Of a stretch of 64,000 bases of DNA, positions 29,952-47,301 are shown one piece after another (the first letter of the stretch is position 1; every line of letters starts with the position of its first letter). The position numbers were made by a program, and so were the translations under genes. The stretch is taken from assembly GCA_016207885.1 (NCBI GenBank), contig JACQZE010000014.1, forward strand, positions 25,724 through 89,723, read 5' to 3'. The stretch is from Nitrospirota bacterium (GTDB lineage Bacteria > Nitrospirota > Thermodesulfovibrionia > UBA6902). A model generated the notes under the pieces. It was not told where the DNA came from, ran no database searches, and worked only from the letters and a program-made list of their open reading frames with translations.

Positions 29952-30026
29952 TGGTGGGCGATGTAGGTTTCGAACCTACGGCCTCTGCCGTGTGAAGGCA
30001 GCGCTCTCCCCCTGAGCTAATCGCCC
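29952..30026 (-). tRNA. trnV: tRNA-Val (anticodon CAC), CCA encoded
   Basis: The minus strand folds by hand into a cloverleaf: GGGCGAT-TA-GCTC-AGGGGGA-GAGC-G-CTGCC-TTCACAC-GGCAG-AGGCC-GTAGG-TTCGAAA-CCTAC-ATCGCCC-A-CCA (75 nt). Confidence 0.9.
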
Positions 30027-30514: not shown

Positions 30515-31117
30515 ATGGCTGTAAAAGTTCTGATCGTTGATGATGATGTTGCTCTTGCTACCCAGCTCAAATGGTTTTTGCCGAAAAAATATGTGTCTGT
30601 ACTTGCGCATACTGCTGAAGATGCCCTCGCCTTTTTCTGTAATAATGGCATTGACATAGTTCTGCTGGATCTCGGGCTTCCTCCATATGAGAACACGCCT
30701 GAGGTAGGCCTTAAGCTTCTTAATGATATGCTGGCTGCGAAGCCAGGTATAAAGATAGTTGTTGTGACAGGCCAGAAGGAGAGGAACGTGGCTGTAAAGG
30801 CGATATCCCAGGGGGCGTTTGATTATCTCATGAAACCGGTTGGAGAGAGCAAGCTTGTTGATTCTTTGAAAAGAGCTGAGTTTTTTGCTGATATAGAGAG
30901 TGATATACCTGCTGAAGAAAAGTCGATCAAGATAAATCCGCAGAGCCTTAATGAGGGCTTCGAGACGCTTAAGGAGGACATGAAGAAACATATAATCATT
31001 GAAGCTCTGCAGAAGACTGAAAACAACGTATCAAAGACCGCCAGGCTCCTTGGACTGAGAAGAACATCCGTCTATTACTACATCAATAAGTATAATCTGA
31101 GAACCAGGGATCAATGA
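30515..31117 (+). CDS. Response regulator, PrsR-like receiver plus Fis-type HTH, without a sigma-54 AAA+ module
   Basis: 200 aa. The REC domain has QLKWFL...LLDLGLPP...IVVVTGQKERNVAVKAISQGAFDYLMKP, resembling PEP-CTERM-box regulators as I recall them. The C-terminal HTH is NVSKTARLLGLRRTSVYYYINKY, and no Walker/GAFTGA region lies between. Confidence 0.75.
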   Translation: MAVKVLIVDDDVALATQLKWFLPKKYVSVLAHTAEDALAFFCNNGIDIVLLDLGLPPYENTPEVGLKLLNDMLAAKPGIKIVVVTGQKERNVAVKAISQGAFDYLMKPVGESKLVDSLKRAEFFADIESDIPAEEKSIKINPQSLNEGFETLKEDMKKHIIIEALQKTENNVSKTARLLGLRRTSVYYYINKYNLRTRDQ

Positions 31118-33033
31118 AACCCCTTATCCTGTTTACGATTGCCTGCGCAGTCGGGCTGCTTTCGCTGATCGTAACACGGACGTACACGAAGAACAGGGCC
31201 GCAATCATTTTTTTCACTGCTGATATCGCTCTGCTTATCGCCATTTATTACTTCATGATCAATTTGTTCTATATCTTTGCATATCTTGTGCTGCTCTTTC
31301 TCTTTCTCTTTATCCTCTCAATTATGAGGGTCACTTCAAAAAACAGTTCTTTTCTGATCAAGGATTCTTTGATCTCTCCGGATACGAGACGTTCCAGTTC
31401 CTCATCGGTTCGTGAAGGGATCAATGCTGCTATCAAATATGCGTCTTTCGGGCATTTGGCGCTGTCTTCTATTCTTGTGTCTGTCTTTATGCTCCCTGAG
31501 ATATATCACTCTATCGCCATTACCGCCGGAGTCGGCATGGCGTTTTTCTCTCTGATCAATCTCAGCCTGGTCCGTCAGAGAAGAAATCTGCTGGCGTATG
31601 ACAAGGCCTTTCTTCATGTGCTGTATATCAAGGTCATTGTCCTTGCATTGTCAATGAACCCTTTCTTTCTCTGGAACTATTCTTTTGTTGCTCCTTTGTC
31701 TTCGCTGCTTGTCATAGCAGCCGGTTACGGGGTGCTTTTTAAAGGGGAACTTTTCATCTTCAGGGTCAGGGCCTCCGCGGATATGTTATGGAAGGCGCTG
31801 CTCCTCATCAGCCTTATTATCTACGGCGTTATTCTTGTTTATCTTGACCGCTACTCTCCACAGGATGCGTTCGCGTTTTATATCAGGATATTCCTGGTAT
31901 CGGCATTCATTATTATTTCAGGGACGCTGTTTTACAGCCGTGAGGCAAGGCTTAAGGTCAAGTTCTTTATCTTACGCCATTTATATGTCAGCAGATATAA
32001 CCTCCTTGAGCTGCTGACCCGAATATTCTCACTGTACCAGAAGAGCAATGAAAGCATGAACTTCTTTATTAAAGAGGTGATGAATTATTTCTTTGAGAAT
32101 TATCCGTTTTCCTGCATAACGTTCATGTTTTCAGCTAAAGATAATAAGATTGAAGAAAAGATAGGCGAGCAGGGAGAGGGAAGCTTTCCTCTCAGGTTTA
32201 GAGATGAAACGAGTACCGCTAAGATCGAGATCGTTTTTTACAGCAAAGTGATCTTTGATGAAGACGACAGGATGAATCTCAGGCTTATTGCTGAACTTCT
32301 ATTCCGGATGACATATGACATGTACCTTACCCGCAGCAAAGTCTTCAGGGAGAAACTGGAGATAGCCGAGAGGCTTAAGCTCTTTCTCATCCATGACCTG
32401 AAGAACATATGCCATACGCTTAATATGCTTGAGAAGAACATATCAAGGGTGCAGCCCTCGGAGGCCGAAGAGTTTCTTAATGATTTTCGCCTTACAGTGC
32501 CCCATCTGGTCAAAAGGGCTGAGAAGATACTAAATACCATCGGTATATTGAGAGAGGGGAATAATCCCACTATATTTTCATTGAAGGATGTAATCGATGA
32601 GATACTCAAGCTCTTTCATAAGAAGCAGATCTTTATAACAAATTTTGACGGTGATGACAGGATATATGCCGACAGGGCGGCAGTAATGGTCGCTCTTGAG
32701 AATATCCTGCGGAACGCGCATGATAAATCTTTTGAAGACGCCCGGCTTGAGATAAGCATACATGGCAGCAGGGTTGATGAGAATTATGTCCTCACAATAT
32801 GTGATGACGGCATTCCCATGCCGGAAGAGGTTGCCGGAAGGATATTTGAACCCTTCTTTACGACCAAGAAAGGCGGCATAGGGGTGGGGCTTTATCAGAC
32901 AAAGGAATTTATTGTATCACAGCACGGAACTGTGGAAGTGCAAAACTCGCCGTCAGGCGTATGTTTTATTATCAAACTTCCTGTGGGACAGCATGATCTT
33001 TTTCATTCAGATGTAAATAATTTAGACAGTTGA
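31114..33033 (+). CDS. Polytopic sensor histidine kinase, PrsK-like
   Basis: 639 aa with about 300 aa of multiple TM helices, a central domain, an H-box (LFLIHDLKNICHTL), and an ATP-binding region (CDDGIPMP...FFTTKKGGIGVGLY). It overlaps the regulator by 4 bp. Confidence 0.75.
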   Translation: MKPLILFTIACAVGLLSLIVTRTYTKNRAAIIFFTADIALLIAIYYFMINLFYIFAYLVLLFLFLFILSIMRVTSKNSSFLIKDSLISPDTRRSSSSSVREGINAAIKYASFGHLALSSILVSVFMLPEIYHSIAITAGVGMAFFSLINLSLVRQRRNLLAYDKAFLHVLYIKVIVLALSMNPFFLWNYSFVAPLSSLLVIAAGYGVLFKGELFIFRVRASADMLWKALLLISLIIYGVILVYLDRYSPQDAFAFYIRIFLVSAFIIISGTLFYSREARLKVKFFILRHLYVSRYNLLELLTRIFSLYQKSNESMNFFIKEVMNYFFENYPFSCITFMFSAKDNKIEEKIGEQGEGSFPLRFRDETSTAKIEIVFYSKVIFDEDDRMNLRLIAELLFRMTYDMYLTRSKVFREKLEIAERLKLFLIHDLKNICHTLNMLEKNISRVQPSEAEEFLNDFRLTVPHLVKRAEKILNTIGILREGNNPTIFSLKDVIDEILKLFHKKQIFITNFDGDDRIYADRAAVMVALENILRNAHDKSFEDARLEISIHGSRVDENYVLTICDDGIPMPEEVAGRIFEPFFTTKKGGIGVGLYQTKEFIVSQHGTVEVQNSPSGVCFIIKLPVGQHDLFHSDVNNLDS

Positions 33034-33127: not shown

Positions 33128-33760
33128 ATGATATGTGACAGCAGGAACAGGAAAAAATCAGGGGTTAGCATAATATTTATTGTTATTTCGATCACAGCGG
33201 TATGTCTTGCCATTTTTGCCTTCTTTGCCGGCGGCAAGTTAATGGCTGACATGCATGCAAAGAATGTTGTTCAATGGTGCAGGAAGTGGGAGTCAGCCGA
33301 GCTGACCTACTATTTTAAACGTGATAAACTTGCCGGTGATAAAAACGGCAACGGCATTATTGCTGATGAAGGCGGCCCGGGGTCGCCTGTAATGGAGCTT
33401 GTCGGATCCAAAGTTATCTCTGAATCCATGAAGAAGATCGAGGAAGGTGATTCCATATTTTATATAAATATAGGATTCAATACCGTTAAAAACAGGAAGA
33501 GAAATGTATTTGTCATATGCCCTTCTGCAAAATGTGACAGGACGCTTAACAAGGACGAGGCTGCAATGATGGTGAAGATAGACAAGCTGATGGATGGCGA
33601 GGCTATCGCTTCAGAGGGGAATTTAAAGGGAGCTACAGGTGTTACCCTGGTTTCAGAGGGGGATACAGTGACTGATGTCAGGGAGGCGGCGGCATCAGCA
33701 GACTGGAACGGATCATCATTAATAGGAGCTGTTTATTATTTTGAGGATTCCGGCAAGTGA
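33128..33760 (+). CDS. Pilin-like paralogue with a degenerate N-terminus (generic TM anchor, no G-F-x-x-x-E motif)
   Basis: 210 aa. The body aligns by eye with 34748, 35540 and 36279 (GDKNGNGIIADEGG; KRNVFVICPSAKCD; KIDKLMDGEA; AVYYFE). The N-terminus is KKSGVSIIFIVISITAV, without Glu at +5. Confidence 0.6.
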   Translation: MICDSRNRKKSGVSIIFIVISITAVCLAIFAFFAGGKLMADMHAKNVVQWCRKWESAELTYYFKRDKLAGDKNGNGIIADEGGPGSPVMELVGSKVISESMKKIEEGDSIFYINIGFNTVKNRKRNVFVICPSAKCDRTLNKDEAAMMVKIDKLMDGEAIASEGNLKGATGVTLVSEGDTVTDVREAAASADWNGSSLIGAVYYFEDSGK

Positions 33761-33892: not shown

Positions 33893-34531
33893 ATGTTATC
33901 TATTTTTAAACTGAATAAGAAACAGGGCTTTTCTTTAGTTGAGCTTTCAATTGTCCTGGTCATAATAGGCCTGCTTATCGCCGCGCTTGTCAAGGGCAAG
34001 GCTGTGCTCGAGAATGCGAGGATCAAAAGGGTCATAGGAGATGTCGAGACCATCGTTTCCGCCTATAATACATACTATGACCTCTACAGCGCTTATCCCG
34101 GAGATGACCGGTTCGCAAGCGGAAGATGGCCTACTCTTGTTGTGAGTGGTGATGCAGACGCTTTGATCGAGGGCGCAAATTGTAACATTGGCCCGGCAGA
34201 CGGGCAGGAGTGCAATGAGGCGTGGCAGGAATTAAGGGCGGCGCTTATGGTGCAGGGAGACCCGCTTGCTACAGGTGCGTCTGTTCTGCCTACGCATACT
34301 CTTGGCGGTATAATATGGATATGGAATAGTTCGAGTGACGGAGCCGGTATGGCTGAATTCGGCATAAGCGGGAACAGGAATTACATAGGTGTTACAAATT
34401 TAAGGAGCGAGGTCGCTGAAGTAATAGATAACAAATTTGATGATGGTGTCTTTGATTCAGGTAGCGTGCGCGGCAGCGCTGATTACAGTATAGATCCCGA
34501 AGCTGTTGTGGAGATATATTACGCGTTATAG
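33893..34531 (+). CDS. Type IV prepilin-like protein (candidate major subunit)
   Basis: 212 aa with the class III signal MLSIFKLNKKQG|FSLVELSIVLVIIGLLIAALV (Gly-1, Phe+1, Glu+5) and a C-terminal Cys pair. Confidence 0.78.
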   Translation: MLSIFKLNKKQGFSLVELSIVLVIIGLLIAALVKGKAVLENARIKRVIGDVETIVSAYNTYYDLYSAYPGDDRFASGRWPTLVVSGDADALIEGANCNIGPADGQECNEAWQELRAALMVQGDPLATGASVLPTHTLGGIIWIWNSSSDGAGMAEFGISGNRNYIGVTNLRSEVAEVIDNKFDDGVFDSGSVRGSADYSIDPEAVVEIYYAL

Positions 34532-34591: not shown

Positions 34592-34747
34592 AGGACAGCG
34601 GTTTTTTTATAAAGTTTAGTCAGGTCAGGAGTTAAAATTTTTTTAAAAGGAGGGATCAAGGGGCTTACCGGTTTTATTTGACTTACAAACTTTAACAACC
34701 ATGAAACCATAAAGGGCATGGAAAATCAAAAAGGAGGAGTAAAGAGC

Positions 34748-35389
34748 ATGAAAACATTTCAGAAGATGAGAGAGCAAAAGGGCTTCACACTGATCGAACT
34801 TGCGATCGTCCTTGTCATCATCGGCATCATCATCGGCGCCGTTTTGAAGGGGCAGGATCTTATCGAATCAGCCCGTATCAAGAAGTTTGACAACAGCCTC
34901 AGGGAGTGGGAGACCGCTGTATGGACCTATGTTGACAGAAAAGGGACCTTCCCCGGCGACACTAACTCAAACGGCATCATAGGCGACACTGCGGCGTCAG
35001 ATTATTCTGCAGGAGAGGATATTGTTAATGCCAACTTCATCAATAGTCCTGATACTAATCCTTTGACCGTAGGCAGTTTACAGTTCTATGTATTTTTTGG
35101 TAATGACGATGACACAGTGGACAAGAATGTTATGGTCATATGCGCAAATGTTGATTGCGATCAGACTTTTGATGATTCTTACGTCAAATATGCCGAGTCT
35201 TTTGACACGGTAATTGACGGTTCTGTTGGTGTTGGAGGTACTGTAGCGTGTAGCGATGGCGCAATAGCTGTAACCGCAAGTAACAGCGGCGATGCCGATG
35301 AAGGGTTTATAGATGCGGCAATAACACCGGCAGCCTGTTCTACCTCTTCTGAGGCTATGGTGTATTATTTTGACAGAGGCAACAACTGA
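34748..35389 (+). CDS. Type IV prepilin-like protein, small paralogue family
   Basis: Start moved to ATG 34748 behind AAAGGAGGAG. Class III signal MKTFQKMREQKG|FTLIELAIVLVIIGIIIGAV. Family motifs are GDTNSNGIIGD, NVMVICANVDCDQ, SFDTVIDG and a C-terminal MVYYFD. Confidence 0.8.
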   Translation: MKTFQKMREQKGFTLIELAIVLVIIGIIIGAVLKGQDLIESARIKKFDNSLREWETAVWTYVDRKGTFPGDTNSNGIIGDTAASDYSAGEDIVNANFINSPDTNPLTVGSLQFYVFFGNDDDTVDKNVMVICANVDCDQTFDDSYVKYAESFDTVIDGSVGVGGTVACSDGAIAVTASNSGDADEGFIDAAITPAACSTSSEAMVYYFDRGNN

Positions 35390-35430
35390 TAGCAGGATTG
35401 ATAACAAAGTAACATTAGATGTTAGTTTAT

Positions 35431-35461
35431 TAATGGGGGCTAAGGCCCCCATTAATTTTTT
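35431..35461 (+). terminator. Intrinsic terminator after the 34748 pilin
   Basis: 10-bp perfect stem (taatgggggc / gcccccatta), loop taag, then a T-run. Confidence 0.8.
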
Positions 35462-35464
35462 ATT

Positions 35465-35477
35465 TTAACTGCTTGAC
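35465..35477 (+). promoter_or_regulatory. Weaker TTAG-N4-TTGAC-like motif (ttaactgcttgac) with a TATAAT -10
   Basis: TTGACT (35473-35478), a 16-nt spacer, then TATAAT (35495-35500), upstream of the 35540 pilin. Confidence 0.5.
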
Positions 35478-35539
35478 TTTATATCATTTAATGCTATAAT
35501 TATTTTATTCAATATTATTTGTTAATAGGGCGGTAAATA

Positions 35540-36190
35540 ATGAAACTCAGGGAAGAAAGAGGTTTTACACTTATTGAACTTGCTCTTATTCTTATCATAA
35601 TCGGCATAATTATCAGCCTTGTGCTAAAAGGGCAGGATGTAATTGAGTCTTCCCGCATGAAGAAGTTTGAGACAGATGTAAGGCACTGGAGGACATCAGC
35701 CTGGCTTTTTTTAGAGAGAAAGGGTGCTTTCCCAGGTGATGGGGATAGCAATGGCATCATAGGTGATGAGGCAACGGCAGTACTCGTACCAGGGTCAACT
35801 GTCATACTGAATGCTAATCTAATAAATCCGCCAAAGGCGAACCCGGTTAGTGCCGGCAGTTTGAATTTCTGGCTCTACTGGGGAACTAATGACGCTTCTG
35901 GAACCTTAGGGCGCAAGAGAAATGTCATGGTTATCTGCGCTAACAATGATTGCACCCAGCCTTTTGAAGGGGATGACTCTGGCGGTAATATGAAGTATGT
36001 TGAGTTCCTTGATACGGTTATTGACGGTGCGAGAGACGGCACAGTTGGCCTTATAAGGGCGGTATCTACTTCTCCGTTACTGGAAGGTTCAGGTGATGAC
36101 AGGACTGTCAGGGAAGTTTCTGAGGCTGGTACAGCATGGACCTCAGGTTCGACAGTGGCATTAGTCTATTATATAGACAAGAATTTGTAA
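35540..36190 (+). CDS. Type IV prepilin-like protein, small paralogue family
   Basis: 216 aa with MKLREERG|FTLIELALILIIIGIII. Family motifs are GDGDSNGIIGDE, KRNVMVICANNDCTQ, FLDTVIDG and a C-terminal ALVYYID. Confidence 0.8.
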   Translation: MKLREERGFTLIELALILIIIGIIISLVLKGQDVIESSRMKKFETDVRHWRTSAWLFLERKGAFPGDGDSNGIIGDEATAVLVPGSTVILNANLINPPKANPVSAGSLNFWLYWGTNDASGTLGRKRNVMVICANNDCTQPFEGDDSGGNMKYVEFLDTVIDGARDGTVGLIRAVSTSPLLEGSGDDRTVREVSEAGTAWTSGSTVALVYYIDKNL

Positions 36191-36228: not shown

Positions 36229-36257
36229 AGGGGCGATGGATCGCCCCTATTTTTTTG
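36229..36257 (+). terminator. Intrinsic terminator after the 35540 pilin
   Basis: aggggcga / tcgcccct stem, loop tgga, followed by T7. Confidence 0.8.
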
Positions 36258-36278
36258 ATATTTTAATATGGACAAGAA

Positions 36279-36899
36279 ATGAAAGACCAAAAGGGATTCG
36301 GCCTGGCCGAGATCGCGATTATCATTACGATCGTAGTTATACTCTCATTTTCATTACTTAAGGGATGTGAGATGATAGAAGACGCCAAGCTTAAGAAGTT
36401 TGAGAAGAGCGTTCTTAAATGGAAAGAGAGCGCAAAAGATTATTACAATATTAAAGGCCATCTTCCGGGTGATACAAATTCTAATCTTATAATAGGGGAT
36501 GAAGGATTTCCGTCACCGGGAACTACTCTGATACAGAAGGCGGATTTTATCAACAACCCGCCGTCAAACCCCATGGCGGTTGGCAGCCTGAGTTTTTGGG
36601 TCTATTACGGCAATGACGGCAATACAGTCAGGCCGAGAAATGTCCTTGTCATATGCTCTGATAATGCCTGTATGAAAACTTTTGCCAGCAATGAGCTGAA
36701 ATATGTTCAATCGTTTGATACAGTGATCGACGGCGAAGCAGACGGCAAAGCAGGTGAGGTAAAGGCCTTGTCTGCGGTCACAGTCTATGGTTCAGGAGAT
36801 AACAGGGTTGTCACTCATCTGGATACTGCTAATGCAGTTGAGTGGGGTTCAAACAACGGCGTAGCGCTCGTATACTATTTAAAGGGGCGTTTAAAATAG
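36279..36899 (+). CDS. Type IV prepilin-like protein, small paralogue family (G|FGLAE variant)
   Basis: 206 aa with MKDQKG|FGLAEIAIIITIVVIL. Family motifs are GDTNSNLIIGDE, RNVLVICSDNACMK, SFDTVIDGEA and a C-terminal ALVYYLKG. The first O-OTase-like gene follows after 18 nt. Confidence 0.75.
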   Translation: MKDQKGFGLAEIAIIITIVVILSFSLLKGCEMIEDAKLKKFEKSVLKWKESAKDYYNIKGHLPGDTNSNLIIGDEGFPSPGTTLIQKADFINNPPSNPMAVGSLSFWVYYGNDGNTVRPRNVLVICSDNACMKTFASNELKYVQSFDTVIDGEADGKAGEVKALSAVTVYGSGDNRVVTHLDTANAVEWGSNNGVALVYYLKGRLK

Positions 36900-36917
36900 T
36901 GAAAGTCTTTTTCCGGT

Positions 36918-38687
36918 ATGAATAAAGACACCTTTAAAAATCTCTGCCTCGTCGTATTATATCTTCTTTTCCTGGCCATTATACATATTAATATCAGGAA
37001 CCTCGGCGGTTCTGTTGTTAATCCGGTTGCTTACATGGTATGGATGGCGGTTTCAGCTGTTGTCCTTCTTGCTTTGATGCAGGCCTTTCTTCAGGATGTC
37101 GGCATTCTTGTCATTCCTAAAATAACGGCCTATATTCTGCTCTTCGCAGCTCTCTTTCTTTTGCCGGCCATATTCAATCCGATAACTGACGCGCACTCCT
37201 TTATCTTTAAGAACCTGGGACTGGCAGGCGGCATTATATTTTTTATCTCCCTGCATCAGTTTAATTTCTCTGATGAGCAGAAGGAAAAACTTTTATATGT
37301 GATATTTTTGTCGGCTGTTATTGAGGCAGGCATCGGACTTGCGCAGTATCTTGCTCCGTGGGCAAGGATACCGATGCTGGCATTCTCTACAACAGGTGAT
37401 GTTTTTGGTAATTTTCAGCACCAGAATGTGCTTGCCTCTTTTCTTGCCACCTCAATCGTTATCTCTCTCTATGCGCTGACAGCGCCTTTATTCCGCAGAG
37501 CTGACAGATGGGGTAAGGCGGGATTTTTTATTGCCGTTACAGTCATTTCCTTTATCCTGTTTATCACAGGGTCAAGGGCAGGGCTCATAGGATTGTTTCT
37601 GGGTTGCGTAACGCTATTAATAACGAGGTACAGGCTTTTCAAGACAGCGCCTCTCTATCTTTTAATATGGACGCTTGCAGTGACTGCAGGGCTGGGACTT
37701 AACCTTTCTTCCGAGAAATATCTTTATCAAAAAGAGCGCGGCGTCTTCTCTGCCGCAAAGAAACTTCAGACCGCGTCAGAGAGCTTTATGGCTGAAAAAG
37801 CAGGCGACCCGAGAATACTGATGTACAGGGTATCACTTGAGATGATCAAAGACAGTCCTGTTTTCGGGCATGGGCCTGGCGGGTTCAAGAGCAAGTATGT
37901 ATTTTTCAGGCGGCAGTTTACCGAAAATATGAGCAGCCGCCCGAGCCTGAATACATTTACATATTATCCGCACAGCGAAACACTCTTTATCCTCATAGAA
38001 TCAGGTTTGGCAGGAGGCTTGGGACTGATAATAATATCTGCGGCCTTTCTGATGTATATATTCAGGCTTGGCATGGAGAGAGGCGGCTTGTATGCCTCTC
38101 TTTTATTGCCGTTAACTTTTCACTCTCAGGTCGAATTTCCGTTCTATCAATCTGCTGTTCATTGGGCGCTCTTTTTGTTTTTATGCTATCTTGTGTCTTC
38201 TCACTTCGTGCGTGAAGTGAATTTTAAGATTGAACGCCGGCTGCGGATCGCGTTGTTAACTGCATCTGTATGCGTATTCATGCTTACAAATATTTTTATG
38301 GCAAGGACGCTGAGCGCGAATATCAAACTGACTGAGTATTACAGGCTTTTGACTTCAGAGGGTGTGAGCCGCATGAAGCTTGCTGAACCTGCGCTGAATA
38401 ATCTGTATCTTGGCCAGTCTGCCCAGAGGATGCTGATGGATTTCGGGCTTGGGATGGCGCTCGGTAAGGATGATAAAAAATTCCTGAATGAGTTTGTCCA
38501 ATGGGCTGAGGAGGAGAGAACCCGCTTCCCGCATTTTATGCTTTACGAAGGCGAGGCAAGGGCTTTGTCCGCGCTTGAAAAAAAAGATGAGGCATTTAAA
38601 CTCCTTGATGAGGGGCTGAGTCTTTATCCTGACAATGAAACATTACTAAATGCGAAGAAAGAATTGGAGTTAACGAGCGGGCTTTAA
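36918..38687 (+). CDS. Wzy_C / PglL / TfpO-like O-antigen-ligase-family membrane protein with a TPR-like C-terminal domain (copy 1)
   Basis: 589 aa, about 10-12 TM helices. GSRAGLIG and YYPHSETLFILIESGLAGGLGL match the O-antigen ligase signature region. A soluble C-terminal helical-repeat tail follows. Confidence 0.7.
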   Translation: MNKDTFKNLCLVVLYLLFLAIIHINIRNLGGSVVNPVAYMVWMAVSAVVLLALMQAFLQDVGILVIPKITAYILLFAALFLLPAIFNPITDAHSFIFKNLGLAGGIIFFISLHQFNFSDEQKEKLLYVIFLSAVIEAGIGLAQYLAPWARIPMLAFSTTGDVFGNFQHQNVLASFLATSIVISLYALTAPLFRRADRWGKAGFFIAVTVISFILFITGSRAGLIGLFLGCVTLLITRYRLFKTAPLYLLIWTLAVTAGLGLNLSSEKYLYQKERGVFSAAKKLQTASESFMAEKAGDPRILMYRVSLEMIKDSPVFGHGPGGFKSKYVFFRRQFTENMSSRPSLNTFTYYPHSETLFILIESGLAGGLGLIIISAAFLMYIFRLGMERGGLYASLLLPLTFHSQVEFPFYQSAVHWALFLFLCYLVSSHFVREVNFKIERRLRIALLTASVCVFMLTNIFMARTLSANIKLTEYYRLLTSEGVSRMKLAEPALNNLYLGQSAQRMLMDFGLGMALGKDDKKFLNEFVQWAEEERTRFPHFMLYEGEARALSALEKKDEAFKLLDEGLSLYPDNETLLNAKKELELTSGL

Positions 38688-38688
38688 T

Positions 38689-40464
38689 ATGATAAAGAGG
38701 ACATATTTTTTGATACTCGGGCTGCTCTTTCTGGTGGTTTTCCACATAACTATCAGGAACTTCGGTTCCCCGCTTGTCCTTCCTGTGGCTTATTTTATCT
38801 GGATAACGATATCAGGGCTTGTGCTTCTCTCAGTGATACAGATATTCAATGAATGGAAGATAACATTTCCGCGCGCTTCCATATATATTCTTATTTTTCT
38901 GCTATTAGTGCTTCAGTCTGCCTTGTTCAACCCTATCATAGACAGCCATGCATTCATATTTGAGACGGCCGGGTTCATTGGCGGGATAATATTCTTCATA
39001 TCCCTGCATCAGTTTGAACTTACGGATGATGATAAGGAGAGACTGTTTTATGTGATATTTATCTCCGGCATGATAGAGGCGCTGATAAGCCTGTTTCAAT
39101 ACTTTAACCCAAACACAGGCATCTTTTTGATAGTTATCCCTGCTGCAAAGAAGATCTATGGCAATTTCCAGCATCAGAACCTTTTAGCCTCGTATCTTGC
39201 GACATCCGTTGTGATATCGTTCTATCTCATAACCGGGGAGATTTTCAAGGGATTTAACAGATGGCTTAAGGCTATGTTTTATCTTGTTGTTCTGCTCATG
39301 TGCTTCATCATCTTCCTCACAGGCTCAAGGGCAGGAGTGATAGAGGCAGGGGCCGGAGTGATTATACTCCTGGCAGCGAGGTATGGGCGTTACAGGGAGA
39401 GGTTGCTCTACCCTGCCGTATGGATGCTGATGATAGTATTTGGAATATCCGGAAGTGTGGCTGCTGAGAAGTATTACTACAAAAGGGATTCCGCGCTCAG
39501 CTCTGTAGGGCATAAGATCGGCATGACGATGGAGAGCGTGGCAGGTGATGAGGTCACGGACGCAAGAGTGCCGATGTATCTTACCGCTGTAAACATGATT
39601 GAAGATAAGCCGCTAACAGGACACGGGCCTGGCAGCTTCGGCAGCAAGTTCATGCACTACCGAAGCAGGCTTGCCAAAGAGCATCCTGAATATCCTTATG
39701 AAGTTGCATTTATATCACATCCGCACAACGAGTTTTTATACAGGACTGCTGAGTCCGGCCTGCTGGGCGGTGCGGGGCTGCTGGGTGTCGGGGTTGCGTT
39801 TATGGTATGCCTTATCAAACTCGGCAGAGAACGGGGCGGAACTTATGCGGCTTTTTTATTTCCGATGGCATTTGATACTCAGGTGAGTTATTCCCTTTAC
39901 CAGTCCATGCCGCATTGGGCGCTCTTTCTGTTTCTGCTTTACCTGCCGTCATCGTACTTCATAAAAGAAGTTAAAATAAGACCTGCCGGACTCCTGAAGA
40001 CGGGCGCATTGACTGCCGCTGCTACGCTATTTGTGGTCATAACCTACCTCTCAATAACAACTCTCAATGCGCAGATAGCTATGAAAAAATATCAGGATCA
40101 TCTTTTAAAGGAAAATATCATAAGACCCGAGCTCTTAATACCGTCTCTCAATAATCTCTATCTCAGACAGATAGGCATAAGGCTTTTGATGGATGCAAAG
40201 CTGAGGGCAGGGCTCATGCGGGGCGACAAAAAGATGCTTGAGGAGTTTGTCGAGTTTTCCAGAGAAGAGCGGAAGGTATATCCGCGTAGCGTGCTGTATT
40301 TGAGGGAGGCGAGGGCGCTCTTTGACCTCGGCAGAAGAAAAGAGGCATACAGACTTCTTGAGGAAGGACTGAGTCTTTATCCGGGCAGAGCTGATCTGAC
40401 AGATACAAAAAAGGAGTTTCTTATTGAAGAGACAGAAGAGGTTATGCGCAGCAGGATGAACTAA
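38689..40464 (+). CDS. Wzy_C / PglL / TfpO-like protein (copy 2)
   Basis: 591 aa, colinear paralogue of copy 1 (GSRAGVIE, SHPHNEFLYRTAESGLLGGAGL). Starts 1 nt after the copy 1 stop. Confidence 0.7.
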   Translation: MIKRTYFLILGLLFLVVFHITIRNFGSPLVLPVAYFIWITISGLVLLSVIQIFNEWKITFPRASIYILIFLLLVLQSALFNPIIDSHAFIFETAGFIGGIIFFISLHQFELTDDDKERLFYVIFISGMIEALISLFQYFNPNTGIFLIVIPAAKKIYGNFQHQNLLASYLATSVVISFYLITGEIFKGFNRWLKAMFYLVVLLMCFIIFLTGSRAGVIEAGAGVIILLAARYGRYRERLLYPAVWMLMIVFGISGSVAAEKYYYKRDSALSSVGHKIGMTMESVAGDEVTDARVPMYLTAVNMIEDKPLTGHGPGSFGSKFMHYRSRLAKEHPEYPYEVAFISHPHNEFLYRTAESGLLGGAGLLGVGVAFMVCLIKLGRERGGTYAAFLFPMAFDTQVSYSLYQSMPHWALFLFLLYLPSSYFIKEVKIRPAGLLKTGALTAAATLFVVITYLSITTLNAQIAMKKYQDHLLKENIIRPELLIPSLNNLYLRQIGIRLLMDAKLRAGLMRGDKKMLEEFVEFSREERKVYPRSVLYLREARALFDLGRRKEAYRLLEEGLSLYPGRADLTDTKKEFLIEETEEVMRSRMN

Positions 40465-42266
40465 TGTTACAGCCACCCTCCTTATCCAGCCGTTACCTAT
40501 TTGTTTTTATATCCATAATATACTTATTTTTAATGCATATCCCGATTCCGGGGATAGGCGGTATAACTGCCACCCCGCAGGAGTATCTTATCTGGGTCGT
40601 GATACTGACAATTATTCTTTTTTCTCTCTTCAGGGCCATAAAAGATAATGCGTTTGTCACACCGTCATATCTCAGGTATTTTCTTGTTTATCTGGTACTT
40701 ATTTTATCAACAGCAATATTTAATCCGATAATGAATACCGGCATCTTTGTAATAAATGTACTGCGGCTATTAGCTGCTTTTATAATCTGGCTCAGCCTGC
40801 ATCAGTTCAGGCTCGGGGAGAAAGAGAAGGAAGATATTTTATTGCTAATACTTGTTTCCGCTGTTATCGAATCATTGATGGTGATTATCCAGCCTTATGC
40901 ATTTACAGAATACATACCGCCTGTCGGCGGGGCGTTTGCGCAGAAGAACCTCTTTGCCTCATGGACAGCAACAGGAATTGCCATCAGCTTGTATTTTATA
41001 ACAACTAAACGGTTCAGCGGATATGAAGATATAAAGAAGGCGCTGATTTTCTCTTCCGCGGCATTGATGTCTGCCGGCCTTATTCTCGCAAGCTCACGCG
41101 CCGGGCTTCTCGGAGCATCTCTTGCCATCATGATACTACTCACAACAAATTGGAGAAGATACTCAGCTATAAGAAAACATCTTGCAATATGGTTTCTGGT
41201 CTTTGCTCTTGGGATCGGGGGAGGGTTTTATCTTTCGGCCTCGTCGTCTCATAGCCTGAAGAAAGAGGCTGAGCAAGGGGTAAGGTGGCTTGCAGATACA
41301 GGGCAGAGGTCATATGCGGAGCGGCTTCTGATGTACAGGACTTCGTATGAGATGTTTAAGCAGAGGCCGATATCCGGTCAGGGTTTCTCAAATTTCGGAA
41401 GTCTCTACATGTACCACCAGGCAGAAGCTGCGAAGGAGAATGCCGGAGACAAGGCGCTCATTCATGATTATATATCCCATCCGCACAATGAGTTTATTTA
41501 TATATTGGCGGAGTGCGGGATTGTCGGGATATCGGCACTTATCATTGCGCTTTTCGGTATCTGGAGGATACTCAGAAGGACAGGTGCAGGGCAGGCAGGG
41601 ATATATGCCGCGCTGCTCATGCCGTTGATTGTGCATATGATGGTTGAGTATCCGCTTAAGTTATCGACTGTACATTATCTTCTGTTTATTATCCTTTTAT
41701 ATATGGTTACATCCAATGAGACAAAGGTTAGGGAGTTGAAGGCAGGCAAGGGCGCAGCAGCGGCTGTCATGGCAATTGCCGGAGCGCTATATCTCGGAAC
41801 AACAGCATATACATTCAGGACATTCGAGGATTATATGAACCTTGTTGCCTTCAATATCAAGTTCAATGAAGAAAAGGGAAGAATTTCTGAAGAGCACATA
41901 AAGCCTGCGATGGAGAATAGATATCTTCGGGAGACTGCTGTGCCAGATTACATGTATAAAAAGGCGATCGCCGCAGCTTCTGATCCTGAGATGAACAAAG
42001 GCTTTATAGATAAATTTCTGACATGGAATGAGGCTGAGAAGCTGAGAAGGCCTGTGATGAGATCGTTTTATACAGAAGGCCTGCTCTTCTATTATATTGG
42101 AAGCCGTGACACAGACAAGCCCCTTTTTTATTTGAATAAGGCTTTGAGTGCTATTAGACAAGGGCTGTATCTTTATCCTAATGACAGATACCTGACCACA
42201 TTAAAAGAGAGGTCATCACCCAAATATGTGACCGGGAGCATGGGCTTGGAGCCACATCCCCGGTAG
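40464..42266 (+). CDS. Wzy_C / PglL / TfpO-like protein (copy 3)
   Basis: 600 aa, colinear paralogue (SSRAGLLG, SHPHNEFIYILAECGIVGISAL). Its start overlaps the copy 2 stop by 1 nt. Confidence 0.7.
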   Translation: MLQPPSLSSRYLFVFISIIYLFLMHIPIPGIGGITATPQEYLIWVVILTIILFSLFRAIKDNAFVTPSYLRYFLVYLVLILSTAIFNPIMNTGIFVINVLRLLAAFIIWLSLHQFRLGEKEKEDILLLILVSAVIESLMVIIQPYAFTEYIPPVGGAFAQKNLFASWTATGIAISLYFITTKRFSGYEDIKKALIFSSAALMSAGLILASSRAGLLGASLAIMILLTTNWRRYSAIRKHLAIWFLVFALGIGGGFYLSASSSHSLKKEAEQGVRWLADTGQRSYAERLLMYRTSYEMFKQRPISGQGFSNFGSLYMYHQAEAAKENAGDKALIHDYISHPHNEFIYILAECGIVGISALIIALFGIWRILRRTGAGQAGIYAALLMPLIVHMMVEYPLKLSTVHYLLFIILLYMVTSNETKVRELKAGKGAAAAVMAIAGALYLGTTAYTFRTFEDYMNLVAFNIKFNEEKGRISEEHIKPAMENRYLRETAVPDYMYKKAIAAASDPEMNKGFIDKFLTWNEAEKLRRPVMRSFYTEGLLFYYIGSRDTDKPLFYLNKALSAIRQGLYLYPNDRYLTTLKERSSPKYVTGSMGLEPHPR

Positions 42267-42517: not shown

Positions 42518-43780
42518 ATGGCCAATATGAAGAATAAGGGTTTCAGCCTGGTTGAATTATCAATAGCCATCGTTATTGTCGGCATCCTGATTGCTATGGG
42601 CATGAAGATGCTGGTTCCGCTGGTTGAGAGGACAAAGCGGTCTGCGACAAGAGAGACGGTAGATGCGGCTGTAGAGGCTGTTATAGGTTTTGCCGAGACG
42701 AATGGCCGGCTTCCCTCTGATTTAGAGTTCCCCGGCTTAGTGAGAAATTCCAAGGATGTATGGGGCAACGACCTTATTTATCTTCATGATGTTAACCTCG
42801 AAGTTGCCGACAGTGTCTGCGCGAGAAACACGACAGATATTTCTTTGAGAACATGCGGGGATTCGGGGTGCAGTTCATATGAAACTACAAGTGATATCGC
42901 ATTTCTCGTGCTGAGCGCCGGGTCAAATCAGAATGTCCAGACAGATACGGCAACGGTTCCTGTCAAGGTCTATACTTTGGGACTGTCAGGTATTGATGAC
43001 TATGCTTCAGGGCTTAACAGGGCTGAGGCTTATGATGATATTGTAGAGAGGGTGGTTTTATCCGAGCTTAGGGTAAAGGCGGGCTGCTTAGGAAGCCTGC
43101 TTAATATCCTGACACTTGAGATACCTTCCGGTTTCGTGCTTTCAAATTACATGACAAATATTTTTGCCAGCGGCGGGGTGCCTTGGGCTGATGATAATGC
43201 ATCACCGGGTGATGATGATGGCTCAGTAAATCCCCCCCCTGATTACAGATGGTGCGTTACAGGAACACTTCCTATTGGCTTAAGTTATGTATGCAACGGC
43301 TCCCTCGCTGTATCTGTATCCTGCGCCTGGGATGCTGATACAGATACAGAGACAGGAACATGGCAGCAGTGCACCAGCCTTGAGATCTCATCAGGAACAG
43401 ATGGGCCCACAGAGGACGGGGCATTCAACCTTCCTGTATTTGTAAGGGATAATGCTGACAACACGGCGCAGAGGACATTCGGCTTGAGCATAAGCCAGGT
43501 AGTCGGGCTGCACATCTGTCAAGACTACAGGGTATGGAATAATGACTCGACATCAAGGTATTTTGTTAATGGAGGCGGCTGTTATCAGATTGCAACCGGC
43601 GGCGAGATAACAACCGTTAGTACCGGCGGACTGCTTCAAAATGGTGAAGTCATTGTGCGGCATACCGGCGGCGGATGCGGGGGTTCTGATACTGCGATAA
43701 ATTATAATCAGGCGATCTTTGCCGATAATAACTCTGATTGCTGTATCAACCATGACCAGTCTGACAAGACCTGTCCCTGA
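42518..43780 (+). CDS. Giant modular prepilin-like protein P1
   Basis: 420 aa with MANMKNKG|FSLVELSIAIVIVGILIA. Shared module motifs are DVWGNDLIY, CARNTTD, AFLVLSAGSNQNVQTD, GLSGIDDY and AYDDIVERVVLSELRVKAGC. An Ig-like LP.G...ISG...V.VRDN segment and a Cys-framed C-terminal module ending KTCP follow. Confidence 0.75.
   Translation: MANMKNKGFSLVELSIAIVIVGILIAMGMKMLVPLVERTKRSATRETVDAAVEAVIGFAETNGRLPSDLEFPGLVRNSKDVWGNDLIYLHDVNLEVADSVCARNTTDISLRTCGDSGCSSYETTSDIAFLVLSAGSNQNVQTDTATVPVKVYTLGLSGIDDYASGLNRAEAYDDIVERVVLSELRVKAGCLGSLLNILTLEIPSGFVLSNYMTNIFASGGVPWADDNASPGDDDGSVNPPPDYRWCVTGTLPIGLSYVCNGSLAVSVSCAWDADTDTETGTWQQCTSLEISSGTDGPTEDGAFNLPVFVRDNADNTAQRTFGLSISQVVGLHICQDYRVWNNDSTSRYFVNGGGCYQIATGGEITTVSTGGLLQNGEVIVRHTGGGCGGSDTAINYNQAIFADNNSDCCINHDQSDKTCP
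43232..43239 (+). repeat. C8 homopolymer inside P1 (codons NPPP)
   Basis: tcccccccct read directly at 43231-43240. Confidence 0.95.
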
Positions 43781-43848
43781 TCTGTCAGACGGCTGATATT
43801 GAGATTTAAAGACTTTAATATGCGATGTCATTTTTCAGGAGGTGTATT

Positions 43849-45375
43849 ATGTTAAAAGACAGGAGAGGCTTTAACATAGTGGAGATGGCGCTGGTTCTTG
43901 TTGTAGTGGGCGTGCTCATTGCTGTTGGTATTGCGATGCTGATACCTTTGACAAACAGGGTGAAGCATAAGTCGACAGAGAAGATAATAGCAGACGCCGC
44001 AGAGGCGGTCATAGGTTTTGCGGATATAAATCACCGGCTGCCGACCGCTGACGAGTTCAATGATGTCTCGGGCAATTTAACTGATACATGGGGGAATCCC
44101 CTTGTTTATATCCCGGATCTGAACCTTGTAATTGAAAATAGTATCTGTCTGAGAAACGTGTCAGATACAACAGTGAATGTATGCGGGGATTCTTCATGCG
44201 CATCTCCCATAGCTAATGCGGATAATTCAGCATTTCTTATCCTTAGTCCCGGCCCGAATCTTAATATTCAGACAGATATATATGGCAGCTCTAACAGTAA
44301 TGGGAACTCAAACTCTAACGGCAACTCTAATGAGAATGAGAATATGAACGGCAACTCAAATACTAATGATAATGATAACTCAAACTCCAATGGCAATGGC
44401 AATGAGAACGGCAACTCTAATGAGAATGAAAATGATAACCTGAACTCCAATGGCAATGGCAATGAGAACGGCAACTCTAATGAGAATGAAAACTCAAACT
44501 CTAATAGCAATGGCAATGAAAATAGCAGCACTGACGCCCTTATAAATGTATATACCGAGGGATTAGCCGGGATAGATGATTACGCCGATGAACTGGACAG
44601 GCCGGAAGCATATGATGATATCGTCAAGTGGGTAGTGCTTCCTGAGCTAAGGCTCAGGGCAGGATGTGAGGGGAGCCTGTTGAGGATACTTGAAAATCCG
44701 CTTCCTTCAGGGCTTATATCTCAGGCATATGATACTGATATCTTTGCCACAGGCGGAGTGCCCTGGGCTGACGGGGCGGATGCTGATACTGCAGATGATT
44801 ACAGATGGTGCGTGACCTCAAGCCTGCCTGACGGCTTAAGCTACAGCTGCAACGGCGCTCTTGTTTCCTCTGCATCATGCGGCTGGAATGCCGAAACCGC
44901 TACAGAGACCGGGACATGGCAGCAGTGCACCAGCCTTACGATATCAGGTTCACCCGCAACAAGCGGTTCTTTCAGCCTGCCGGTATATGTGAGGGATAAT
45001 GGCGACAATACTGACATGAGGTCATTTGCCTTTACAATAAGCCAGATCTCAGGGTTGCATATCTGTCCTCAATACAGGGTATGGAATACTGACCCCGGCA
45101 CTGATACGGATTATCTTATAAGGGCTGGCAGTGAGCCCGGCGATCCCATTCCTTCAGGAGGTGAATGTGATAATGTTCCACTTGATAATGAGATAACCGC
45201 TGATCTCAAAACCCTTATACGGGGAGAGGTGCTGGAGCAGCATTCTACTGCAAACGGTTCCTGTGGGGGCATGGAGGCTCGTTTGACCTATAACCAGGCG
45301 ATAGCATTGGATACAAACGGTGACTGCTGCCTTGATTTTGATAATAATGTTGTTATTGAAAAGATCTGCCCGTGA
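43849..45375 (+). CDS. Giant modular prepilin-like protein P2 with an Asn/Ser-rich insert
   Basis: Start set at ATG 43849 behind CAGGAGG, giving MLKDRRG|FNIVEMALVLVVVGVLIA. Same module as P1 (TWGNPLVY, AFLILSPGPNLNIQTD, GLAGIDDY, AYDDIVKWVVLPELRLRAGC). The C-terminus ends EKICP. Confidence 0.75.
   Translation: MLKDRRGFNIVEMALVLVVVGVLIAVGIAMLIPLTNRVKHKSTEKIIADAAEAVIGFADINHRLPTADEFNDVSGNLTDTWGNPLVYIPDLNLVIENSICLRNVSDTTVNVCGDSSCASPIANADNSAFLILSPGPNLNIQTDIYGSSNSNGNSNSNGNSNENENMNGNSNTNDNDNSNSNGNGNENGNSNENENDNLNSNGNGNENGNSNENENSNSNSNGNENSSTDALINVYTEGLAGIDDYADELDRPEAYDDIVKWVVLPELRLRAGCEGSLLRILENPLPSGLISQAYDTDIFATGGVPWADGADADTADDYRWCVTSSLPDGLSYSCNGALVSSASCGWNAETATETGTWQQCTSLTISGSPATSGSFSLPVYVRDNGDNTDMRSFAFTISQISGLHICPQYRVWNTDPGTDTDYLIRAGSEPGDPIPSGGECDNVPLDNEITADLKTLIRGEVLEQHSTANGSCGGMEARLTYNQAIALDTNGDCCLDFDNNVVIEKICP
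44287..44529 (+). repeat. In-frame Asn/Ser/Gly/Glu low-complexity tract with about three tandem 60-bp units
   Basis: Sequence lines 44341-44400, 44401-44460 and 44461-44520 align in register (for example aatgagaacggcaactctaatgagaatgaa appears twice). The tract encodes SNSNGNSNSNGNSNENEN... Confidence 0.9.
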
Positions 45376-45423: not shown

Positions 45424-47301
45424 ATGAGTTTTATAAAGGATACAAAAGGGATTGCTCTTATTCAACTGGTTCTATTAGTTATATTGATAGGCGTGCTCGT
45501 GGCTTATGGCATCAGGCAGTTAGGGCCGGAGGTCGCAAAGGAAAAGCGGCTCAATACGAAGAATAAAATAGACGCGGCTGTTCAGGCTGTCGTAGGTTTT
45601 GCAGCAGCAAATGACCACCTTCCAACCATTGCTCAGTTTCCCGGGGTGGTAAGGGATCCGCAGGATGTATGGGGGAATGACCTTGTCTACCGTCCTGATG
45701 ACAATCTTGACAATGATGACAGCACTATCTGCGGAAGAAGCACGACCGATACTGTTGTCAATGAATGCGGGGAAGACGGGACATGTGTTTCCTATAAAGG
45801 AAATGCAGATGTTGCATTTTTAATATTCAGCATCGGGGAGAACCTGAACAGACAGACACGCGTTAATGTGGTTGGAGCAAGCGCGACCGTCCAGACATAT
45901 GAGTATGGATTAGCGGGAATCGATGATGATACCGGAGGCATTAACAGGCCGGAGCCATATAAGGATATCGTTGTCTGGATGGGACTTAATGAATTAAAGA
46001 TAAAGGCGGGCTGCCTCGCCGATCAGTTCAAGATAGTCAATAGCTCTCTGCCTTCAGGAACTATTAACCTTCCATATATTATAAATTTATATGCCCAGGG
46101 AGGGGTTTCCCTGACAGACGGGGGCGATTCAGAAACCGAACCTGATTATGAGTGGTGTGTGACAAGAGACCTTCCAAACGGCCTGAATTATCTGTGTAAC
46201 GGCAGTCTCGCTGTTTCTGCCGACTGCCGCCTTTCAACCGCCACATGGAATCAGTGCACAAACCTTACAATCTCCGGGACACCGGATGTGGAGGGTGTTA
46301 CCAATCTTCCCATATATGCAAGGGATGGTGACAGTAACATTACACAAAAGGTTTTTGGCCTGCTCATAAGGCCGACCCCCGGATTGCATGTATGTGAAGA
46401 AATCGATGGCTGGTACAGGGTATGGAATAATACAGGTAACAAACATGATTTTCAACTTACAGGAGAATCATGTTATGAGATTGCAGAAGGGGATGAAATA
46501 ACTGTTGACGGCAGTTCCAGGACGCTTAGCCGGAACGAAGTAATAAATCAATACGCCACATCAAACGGGGCATGCAATAATCTGGCGAATATCGCAAGCT
46601 TTAATCAGGCGGTTCTCGCTGATATCAATGCTGATTGCTGTATAAAATTTACTGACTATGACTCGCCTGATTATGTGATATTTGTAGACAGAACATGTCC
46701 AGGTGCAGCCGATGATAATGACCATGACGGATATACAACCGAAACTGACTGCAATGACAGTGACCCGGACATTAATCCGGGAGTTTCTGACATCGACTGT
46801 GACAATGTAGACGAGGACTGTGACGGCACTCCGGATGATGGTTATGTTGAAACCCCAACGAGCTGTGGAGTGGGCGTATGTGCTTCAACTGGACAGATGC
46901 AGTGCCAGAGCGGAAGCGTGGTGGATACCTGTTCAGTAGGGTCTCCTTCAGAATCACCTGAATCTTCATGCTCTGACGGCTTTGATAACGACTGCGACGG
47001 TTTAACTGATGGTGCAGACCCGAATTGCATTACAGATATCTGCGCGGCCGGCGGTATGACTGTATTAAATAGTACAGGCTCAAATAAGAAATATAAGATA
47101 AATCTCGAAACCAGTTGTAACACATGGACGAAGAACACCACAAATATTGTGGGATCGACAGCTACCTGGAAAATTTATTCAGGGAGTGGCAGCTGCTCTA
47201 CTCTTCTCTGTACAAAAACATATTCAGATTTCAGGGCAGTCGATGTGAACAATAATTGCAATGCAAGGATCACCGGCTCATGTACGCTGGGTGATAATTA
47301 A
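45424..47301 (+). CDS. Giant modular prepilin-like protein P3 (variant signal G|IALIQ; Cys-rich metal-binding-type repeats; duplicated C-terminal module)
   Basis: 625 aa with MSFIKDTKG|IALIQLVLLVILIGVLVA. Shared module motifs are DVWGNDLVY, AFLIFSIGENLNRQT, GLAGIDDD and PYKDIVVWMGLNELKIKAGC. It then carries DHDGYTTETDCNDSDPDINPG...CDNVDEDCDGTPDD...CSDGFDNDCDGLTDGADPNC. Confidence 0.72.
   Translation: MSFIKDTKGIALIQLVLLVILIGVLVAYGIRQLGPEVAKEKRLNTKNKIDAAVQAVVGFAAANDHLPTIAQFPGVVRDPQDVWGNDLVYRPDDNLDNDDSTICGRSTTDTVVNECGEDGTCVSYKGNADVAFLIFSIGENLNRQTRVNVVGASATVQTYEYGLAGIDDDTGGINRPEPYKDIVVWMGLNELKIKAGCLADQFKIVNSSLPSGTINLPYIINLYAQGGVSLTDGGDSETEPDYEWCVTRDLPNGLNYLCNGSLAVSADCRLSTATWNQCTNLTISGTPDVEGVTNLPIYARDGDSNITQKVFGLLIRPTPGLHVCEEIDGWYRVWNNTGNKHDFQLTGESCYEIAEGDEITVDGSSRTLSRNEVINQYATSNGACNNLANIASFNQAVLADINADCCIKFTDYDSPDYVIFVDRTCPGAADDNDHDGYTTETDCNDSDPDINPGVSDIDCDNVDEDCDGTPDDGYVETPTSCGVGVCASTGQMQCQSGSVVDTCSVGSPSESPESSCSDGFDNDCDGLTDGADPNCITDICAAGGMTVLNSTGSNKKYKINLETSCNTWTKNTTNIVGSTATWKIYSGSGSCSTLLCTKTYSDFRAVDVNNNCNARITGSCTLGDN

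Follow-up and report, generated by a model that had tools for sequence, protein, structure and literature searches.

Three tandem genes for PglL/PglS-class O-oligosaccharyltransferase-like proteins in a multi-pilin MSHA-type locus of a Nitrospirota bacterium

Why are three diverged genes for what look like pilin-modifying enzymes kept side by side in one pilus locus? This question is raised by a 64,000-nt stretch of DNA, hereafter the window, which covers positions 25,724-89,723 of contig JACQZE010000014.1 in assembly GCA_016207885.1 of a Nitrospirota bacterium (Thermodesulfovibrionia; UBA6902). All coordinates are those of the window, in which position 1 is the first letter of the 64-kb stretch. 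Three tandem genes, designated A, B and C (Table 1), follow a pilin gene of a mannose-sensitive haemagglutinin (MSHA)-type pilus locus and encode proteins that resemble O-linked oligosaccharyltransferases (O-OTases). The reading that we favour, and regard as probable with considerable reserve, is that A, B and C are pilin-modifying O-OTases of the PglL/PglS class which divide labour among themselves. Among sequencing runs, the DNA of this region is detected in groundwater DNA metagenomes only, and in no RNA-seq run.

Neither the enzyme family nor its linkage to pilins is new. A search of the open literature returned no description of three or more O-OTases; only the report of two functional oligosaccharyltransferases in Acinetobacter was returned. 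Likewise, nothing was found in the searchable literature on arrays of three to four copies, on their co-amplification with pilins, on five to six copies per genome, on a Glu-less clade like that of B, or on a cytochrome-linked pair of such enzymes. The glycoengineering of bioconjugate vaccines works with O-OTases, of which only four classes have been characterised. Three to six diverged paralogues per genome with candidate acceptors alongside, one clade of which has a remodelled acceptor-side motif, would offer a natural comparison for the determinants of acceptor and glycan specificity. Judging by the locus, uncultured Nitrospirota of groundwater may assemble an MSHA-type filament from many pilins that are heavily and differentially glycosylated, and pilin O-glycosylation would then reach a phylum in which it has not been studied. 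If the enzymes are redundant, the finding is a gene-family expansion of a known enzyme.

Gene structure, domains and predicted fold of A, B and C

The three proteins are collinear over their full lengths. A and B share 44% identity (E 7e-157), A and C share 30% (E 2e-74), and B and C share 28% (E 1e-69). A recent duplication or an assembly artefact is ruled out by this divergence and by the presence of separate orthologues of each paralogue in other genomes; judged from their sequences, A, B and C are the products of old duplications. As read from the sequence, the junction between A and B is TAA-T-ATG, with a gap of 1 nt, and the junction between B and C is TAATG, with an overlap of 1 nt. A spacer of 18 nt separates the stop codon of the fifth small pilin gene from the start of A. 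The first-pass annotation of the window had described three collinear paralogues of about 590-600 aa with these junctions and this distance to a pilin, and the open reading frames (ORFs) agree with it in each respect. The upstream ORF has no Pfam or NCBIfam match of its own. It is identified as a pilin gene because its product has a class-III prepilin signal (KG/FGLAE, with the slash at the cleavage site) and 42% identity (E 4e-50) to the pilin encoded at 35540, and because the profile of the small paralogues matches PilE. The public gene call for C (577 aa) begins at Met24 (position 40533) and drops the first transmembrane (TM) helix. The longer reading, from a start at 40464 that overlaps the stop codon of B, is preferred because the first TM helix is homologous with those of A and B. 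The ratios of nonsynonymous to synonymous substitution rates (dN/dS) relative to the 86%-identical locus L002 are 0.17 for A, 0.18 for B and 0.20 for C, and resemble those of the adjacent pilin and kinase genes. All three genes are under purifying selection.

The domains were called at the Pfam gathering cutoffs, a check that the first-pass annotation had proposed. All three proteins score above the cutoff for Wzy_C (PF04932; 69, 78 and 72 bits for A, B and C, cutoff 31.7) and above that for Wzy_C_2 (PF11846; 68, 33.5 and 43.5 bits, cutoff 28.5). PglL_A (PF15864; cutoff 25) is matched above the cutoff by B only (26.8 bits). The combination of Wzy_C and Wzy_C_2, with or without PglL_A, is the signature of the PglL/PglS-class O-OTases and sets protein O-OTases apart from WaaL (PMC12645811). 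A search of NCBIfam gave no specific family for A, B or C; the glyco_rpt_poly model matches B with 20.5 bits against a cutoff of 40.

Residues common to WaaL and PglL are R224, R298, H349 and P313 of PglL from Neisseria meningitidis (NmPglL), and the residues conserved in PglL only are Q178, N180, G316, G318, H400, E404 and P406 (Schulz et al., PMC3643930). The equivalents in A are R220, R299, H352, P314, N170, G317, G319, H402, E406 and P408, with nearly the numbering of NmPglL. The equivalents of R224, R298, P313, G316, G318 and H349 are invariant in A, B and C, G317 and G319 of A among them, and that of N180 is likewise kept. R220, R299, P314 and H352 are invariant in all orthologues as well. 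The O-antigen-ligase signature motifs noticed at first pass are present, as GSRAG in A and B, as SSRAG in C, and as YYPHSE and SHPHNE. The Q-x-N region reads FQHQN in A and B, and FAQKN in C. The H-x3-E-x-P motif formed by H402, E406 and P408 reads HSQVEFP in A, HMMVEYP in C, and DTQVSYS in B. The part of A that the Pfam model of PglL_A aligns with is the Q-x-N region (residues 163-185), and a match to this model is therefore uninformative on the H-x3-E-x-P motif; Schulz et al. (PMC3643930) place 'PglL_A' at residues 395-420 in their text. By these motifs A and C look canonical. The three proteins are not equivalent in sequence, because B lacks the PglL-specific His/Glu/Pro motif. In B the acceptor-side motif is altered, and the specificity has probably changed.

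The AlphaFold model of A, built with 24 homologues, has a mean predicted local distance difference test score of 88.7. It contains 13 long hydrophobic TM helices, a helical loop region at residues 265-353 after the ninth helix, and about six C-terminal helices that resemble 3-TPR domains. The TPR-like C-terminus expected at first pass is thus seen in the model of A, and the expected 10-12 TM helices are replaced by 13. The catalytic loop and the C-terminal domain are predicted from the helix count to face the periplasm. When the PDB was searched with this model by Foldseek, the single significant match was WaaL (7tpg; E 8e-6, target-normalised TM-score 0.67), and no O-OTase was found in the PDB; no O-OTase structure has been solved (PMC12800693). 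The fold of A matches the architecture of the published model of PglS, with its 13 TM helices and a C-terminal domain on the periplasmic side (PMC12800693).

PglS (formerly PglL-ComP) of Acinetobacter baylyi ADP1 is the closest functional analogue. It combines Wzy_C and Wzy_C_2, as A, B and C do, with PglL_A; its model has a WaaL-like fold of 13 TM helices, like that of A, and its C-terminal domain of about 110 aa lies in the periplasm. Its gene lies directly beside comP, the gene for its pilin-like acceptor, and it targets an internal serine rather than the C-terminus. However, PglS is a single gene with a single acceptor, whereas A, B and C represent an arrangement in which three to four paralogues in tandem are surrounded by ten pilins, within the MSHA-type locus of another phylum. 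PglS is too distant to appear among their sequence matches. The general O-OTases PglL of N. meningitidis and Burkholderia share Wzy_C and Wzy_C_2 with A, B and C, and the diagnostic residues with A and C at almost the same numbering. The PglL genes are usually unlinked to their many substrates, whereas A, B and C show a tight, conserved linkage to pilins, and B lacks the His/Glu/Pro motif. Among the PglL homologues surveyed by Schulz et al., 21 of 31 are encoded beside pilins (PMC3643930). In Acinetobacter, according to Harding et al. 2015 as cited in PMC12645811, a pilin-specific and a general O-OTase share the labour within one genome, and these belong to different classes and lie in separate loci. 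In contrast, the enzymes described here are three to four tandem paralogues of one class, with a further pair elsewhere, which amount to five to six per genome in the relatives.

TfpO (PilO; Pseudomonas aeruginosa 1244 and Acinetobacter) and TfpM (Moraxellaceae) are pilin-dedicated Wzy_C enzymes encoded directly downstream of a pilin gene in the same orientation. They lack Wzy_C_2 and PglL_A, and modify the C-terminal Ser or Thr of the pilin (PMC12645811). This class is ruled out for A, B and C, which contain Wzy_C_2, and none of the ten pilins of the window has Ser or Thr at its C-terminus (K, L, N, L and K in the small pilins, and P, P, N, H and H in the large ones). Of the label Wzy_C/PglL/TfpO-like given at first pass, the first two parts are upheld by domains and residues and the third is not. 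WaaL of Cupriavidus metallidurans (PDB 7TPG) shares the Arg/Arg/His catalytic set with A, B and C. However, it is about 400 aa long, lacks the 13th helix, the TPR-like C-terminal domain and the PglL-specific residues, is encoded in lipopolysaccharide (LPS) core loci, and uses lipid A-core as its acceptor. A, B and C are 589-600 aa long, contain Wzy_C_2, and have pilin and assembly genes as neighbours. A WaaL or Wzy of an LPS or exopolysaccharide locus, the alternative named at first pass, is ruled out by size, extra domain, PglL-type residues and gene context. The 64-kb window contains no O-antigen, core or exopolysaccharide cluster, and wzx, wzz and other polysaccharide-cluster genes are found neither in the window nor in the flanks of the related loci; lptA/lptC-like genes lie at 528-1491, 35 kb from A, B and C.

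Single-copy and amplified loci in Nitrospirota

A neighbour-joining tree resolves three orthogroups, and the same three are present in at least four genomes. In L002 (GCA_030646035.1) the locus is the same, with A, B and C all present, and the orthologue of A is 86% identical. L004 (GCA_003358065.1) has four enzymes in the order A-C'-B-C''. In GCA_016213935.1, A lies at a contig end (L005), and in a 3.7-kb contig (L014) a B-type gene comes after a C-type gene. A second, pilin-free locus with a pair of B-type and C-type genes is present in the same genomes (L001, L006, L007 and L012, from GCA_016213935.1, GCA_030646035.1, GCA_003358065.1 and a contig of run SRR22387877). This pair is divergent to genes for two multihaem cytochromes (Paired_CXXCH_1) and for NHL/SBBP and YNCE/lactonase beta-propeller proteins, and the locus is flanked by a sigma-54 two-component system. 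The cytochromes and beta-propeller proteins may be glycosylated extracellular redox proteins.

A profile of the C-type enzyme recovered 12 loci from the GTDB species representatives, and three more contigs were obtained by protein look-ups. The C-type enzyme is single-copy in ten loci (L009, L011/L018, L013, L016, L017, L020, L021, L022, L024 and L025). In these loci it is preceded by one small pilin or by two, which share 39-49% identity with the window pilin encoded at 34718, and the spacer is often about 20 nt long. In L013, L016, L020 and L021 a homologue of the window's large pilins is encoded after the enzyme, and a secretin gene is close by in several of the single-copy loci. C is thus a member of a clade that is single-copy and pilin-linked across Nitrospirota. 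A-type and B-type proteins are seen only in the clade of the window among 5.8 billion clustered proteins, and scans of the genome collection with A or with a profile of A/B returned one locus only. This distribution agrees with the first-pass remark that three such genes in tandem are unusual: a single copy is the rule in the wider phylum. Because the enzyme is single-copy and pilin-linked there, the arrangement in the window is read as a lineage-specific amplification of small pilin, O-OTase and large pilin. The ancestral Nitrospirota unit would have contained a single small pilin and a single C-type enzyme, in many cases with a large pilin, and this unit appears to have been amplified to five small pilins, three to four enzymes and five large pilins in the Thermodesulfovibrionia clade of the window. 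A homologue from Magnetococcales adjoins cadherin/Big_9 adhesins.

Proposed division of labour and its alternatives

If the favoured reading is correct, A, B and C would be inner-membrane enzymes with 13 TM helices each, whose catalytic loop and TPR-like C-terminal domain lie on the periplasmic side. The glycan would first be built up on undecaprenyl pyrophosphate (Und-PP) and then transferred en bloc to Ser or Thr of the surrounding pilins; only afterwards would the pilins be assembled by the MSHA-type machinery that the locus encodes. The paralogues would use different acceptors, different glycans or both. The pilins are the likely acceptors, as suggested by the adjacency and co-orientation of pilin and enzyme genes in the window, in the relatives and in the ten single-copy loci. 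Division of labour is preferred to redundancy because three orthogroups have long been retained beside two amplified pilin families.

Several points weigh against this reading. B appears to lack the Glu whose mutation in NmPglL (E404) is reported to reduce activity dramatically (PMC12800693), as far as E406 of A is matched to E404 by motif spacing and near-identical numbering, without direct alignment to NmPglL. C has no match to PglL_A, and that of A (23.7 bits) is just below the cutoff. Sequence alone cannot tell an O-OTase of the Wzy_C family from a ligase or polymerase (PMC12645811, PMC3643930). The window contains no genes for the synthesis or flipping of an Und-PP-linked glycan. Literature searches on pilin glycosylation in Thermodesulfovibrionia were empty. 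Finally, pilin modification is apparently not the sole function of the B and C clades, because the pairs of B-type and C-type genes occur beside those for multihaem cytochromes and NHL-repeat proteins.

The divergence of B is shared by its orthologues. The PglL-specific Glu is absent from all nine B-type proteins, which have S, G or A instead, and the His is absent from eight of the nine, which have D or Q instead. Every single-copy C-type enzyme has complete Q-x-N and H-x3-E-x-P motifs. A decaying pseudogene is ruled out for B, since the ORF is intact, the dN/dS value is low (0.18), Arg/Arg/His are kept, and the B-type is conserved in all nine examples from related genomes and metagenome contigs. 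The site of B is probably remodelled rather than decaying, because the gene is under purifying selection, the WaaL-type catalytic residues are kept, and the His-to-Asp and Glu-to-Ser changes co-occur. Each B-type gene seen adjoins a C-type gene, and B may therefore depend on a partner or use a different acceptor.

A bolder form of the favoured reading, which we consider rather unlikely, is that the array constitutes a 'glycan code' for a heteropolymeric pilus. The enzymes would then have non-overlapping acceptor specificities that cover both pilin families, B would represent an unrecognised O-OTase subclass with a different acceptor chemistry or with partner dependence, and the pair of B-type and C-type enzymes would have been recruited to extracellular multihaem cytochromes or NHL-repeat proteins.

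It is unlikely, in our estimate, that the three proteins have mixed functions, with only C, and perhaps A, acting as a protein O-OTase. B would then be a Wzy-like polymerase or a WaaL-like ligase with a glycan or a lipid as its acceptor; it might, for example, lengthen the Und-PP-linked glycan that C transfers. The altered motif of the B-type proteins, the constant adjacency of their genes to a C-type gene, and the name 'Wzy polymerase domain-containing' given by NCBI to some relatives are all in keeping with such a role. However, the similarity of B to A extends over the full length and includes the C-terminal Wzy_C_2 domain, and B alone of the three has an above-threshold match to PglL_A. 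The co-occurring substitutions suggest a site that is remodelled and not lost. Moreover, neither type of locus has wzx, wzz or other polysaccharide genes beside B.

We give equally little credence to the possibility that A, B and C are general O-OTases with many periplasmic or surface targets, like PglL of Neisseria or Burkholderia, and that their position beside the pilins reflects co-regulation only. Enzymes of the PglL class are typically general (PMC12645811), and the second B-type/C-type locus has cytochrome and beta-propeller genes, and the Magnetococcales homologue adhesin genes, as neighbours. However, the adjacency of pilin and enzyme genes, often at a short spacing, is conserved over many species, a pattern that is reported for the pilin-dedicated enzymes PglS, TfpO and TfpM (PMC12645811), and a general enzyme gives no reason for three to four copies within a pilin array.

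An obligate hetero-oligomer, in which A-type or B-type subunits and C-type subunits split catalysis from acceptor or donor recognition, is very unlikely: every A-type or B-type gene seen has a C-type gene in its array (A-B-C, A-C-B-C, or B-C beside the cytochromes), and the gap and overlap of 1 nt suggest translational coupling, but C-type enzymes stand alone in most Nitrospirota, the O-OTases characterised so far act singly in E. coli according to PMC9829042 and PMC12800693, the catalytic Arg/Arg/His are kept in A, B and C, and A is followed in the window by B and not by a C-type gene.

The surrounding pilus locus

Pilin-modifying O-OTases with divided labour, as favoured here, would act within the gene set that is shown in Table 1. 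A, B and C lie in one co-oriented block of about 33 kb, between five pilins of about 210 aa and five pilins of 420-625 aa.

Table 1. Position of the three enzyme genes and of the other features of the pilus locus in the window
Feature	Position	Strand	Remarks
Response regulator and multi-TM histidine kinase	30515-33033	+	Two-component system; head of locus
Small pilin paralogue	33128-33760	+	
Small pilin paralogue	33893-34531	+	
Small pilin paralogue	34718-35389	+	
Terminator-like hairpin	35429-35456	+	12-bp stem and T-run; after pilin 34718
Promoter-like site	35473-35500	+	Near-consensus, best in region; before pilin 35540
Small pilin paralogue	35540-36190	+	
Terminator-like hairpin	36229-36248	+	After pilin 35540; would be 5' boundary of a unit of pilin 36279, A, B and C
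Fifth small pilin	36279-36899	+	206 aa; upstream of A
Paralogue A, O-OTase-like	36918-38687	+	589 aa; Wzy_C and Wzy_C_2; PglL-type residues all kept
Paralogue B, O-OTase-like	38689-40464	+	591 aa; Wzy_C, Wzy_C_2 and PglL_A; Arg/Arg/His kept; H-x3-E-x-P changed to D-x3-S-x-S
Paralogue C, O-OTase-like	40464-42266	+	600 aa; Wzy_C and partial Wzy_C_2
Large pilin paralogue	42518-43780	+	
Large pilin paralogue	43825-45375	+	
Large pilin paralogue	45424-47301	+	625 aa
Large pilin paralogue	47763-49043	+	
Large pilin paralogue	49396-50850	+	
Three membrane-protein genes	50961-56914	+	Between pilins and assembly genes
Spermidine-synthase-like and TPR membrane protein	50961-53786	+	941 aa
Membrane protein	53832-55331	+	499 aa; no family match
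PMT_2 glycosyltransferase (GT-C fold, ArnT/PMT-like)	55379-56914	+	511 aa
Pilus assembly genes	57192-62869	+	449-aa, 184-aa and 165-aa (weak T2SSB-like) proteins, then secretin and ATPase
Secretin	59558-61204	+	Passes MshL equivalog cutoff (264 vs 250 bits)
PilB/MshE-type ATPase	61217-62869	+	Cyclic di-GMP (c-di-GMP)-binding MshEN domain

The promoter-like and terminator-like sites were called by a consensus scan and are pattern matches only. The scan found no terminator-like site with a strong stem and T-run at 36249-42266. The fifth small pilin gene is probably co-transcribed with A, B and C as one transcript, because no site comparable to the two hairpins lies between 36249 and the end of C.

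The response regulator at the head of the locus consists of a receiver domain and a Fis-type helix-turn-helix domain, without a sigma-54 AAA+ domain. The two-component system is most similar in NCBIfam to PrsR/PrsK, regulators of the PEP-CTERM system, far below the cutoffs. It is kept with the amplified locus in L002, L004 and L005, and is not detected in the available stretches of the single-copy loci.

The profile of the five small pilin paralogues matches PilE of Neisseria (E 1e-7), and also the geopilin and MshA chains in the PDB. The first of them (33128) reads KKSG/VSIIF, and has neither Glu at position +5 nor the GF cleavage motif; in L002, L004 and L005 the array likewise opens with its orthologue. 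It may be a minor pilin that is atypical or stays unprocessed. Two of the large pilin genes contain imperfect tandem repeats, of 30/60 nt at 44317-44522 (pilin 43825) and of 18 nt at 50476-50531 (pilin 49396). The repeats encode low-complexity inserts rich in Asn, Ser, Gly and Glu (NSNGNSNENEN...), which are absent from the large pilins 42518, 45424 and 47763 and could be length-variable surface spacers. In the 625-aa pilin, a C-terminal extension rich in Cys and Asp contains a sub-threshold MopE-like motif for metal binding (residues 442-472), and the same pilin with the same motif is found in L026.

The gene for the 941-aa membrane protein comes after the large pilins in L026 too, and the equivalent position in L013 is occupied by genes for a GT2 glycosyltransferase and a PTPS_related membrane protein. 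By analogy with TfpW, pilins could also be glycosylated by a second route, in which the PMT_2 enzyme would use polyprenyl-phosphate sugars. A second T2SSE-type ATPase gene (62955-64000; Walker A motif GATGSGKTT) directly follows that of the MshEN-domain ATPase and is cut short by the end of the window. A PAS-GGDEF diguanylate cyclase is encoded at 25975-27942, about 3 kb upstream of the locus. Control of the pilus by c-di-GMP fits with the presence of this cyclase and of the MshEN-domain ATPase.

At 29952-30286, an ORF for an 89-aa GIY-YIG protein (30017-30286) shares about 10 nt at its end with a minus-strand tRNA-Val(CAC) gene, and the same small GIY-YIG gene is found at the same place in L002. 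At 10313-12318, the gene for an N6/N4 DNA methylase (368 aa) overlaps by 4 nt a 300-aa ORF without a Pfam match, and the two may be a restriction-modification pair.

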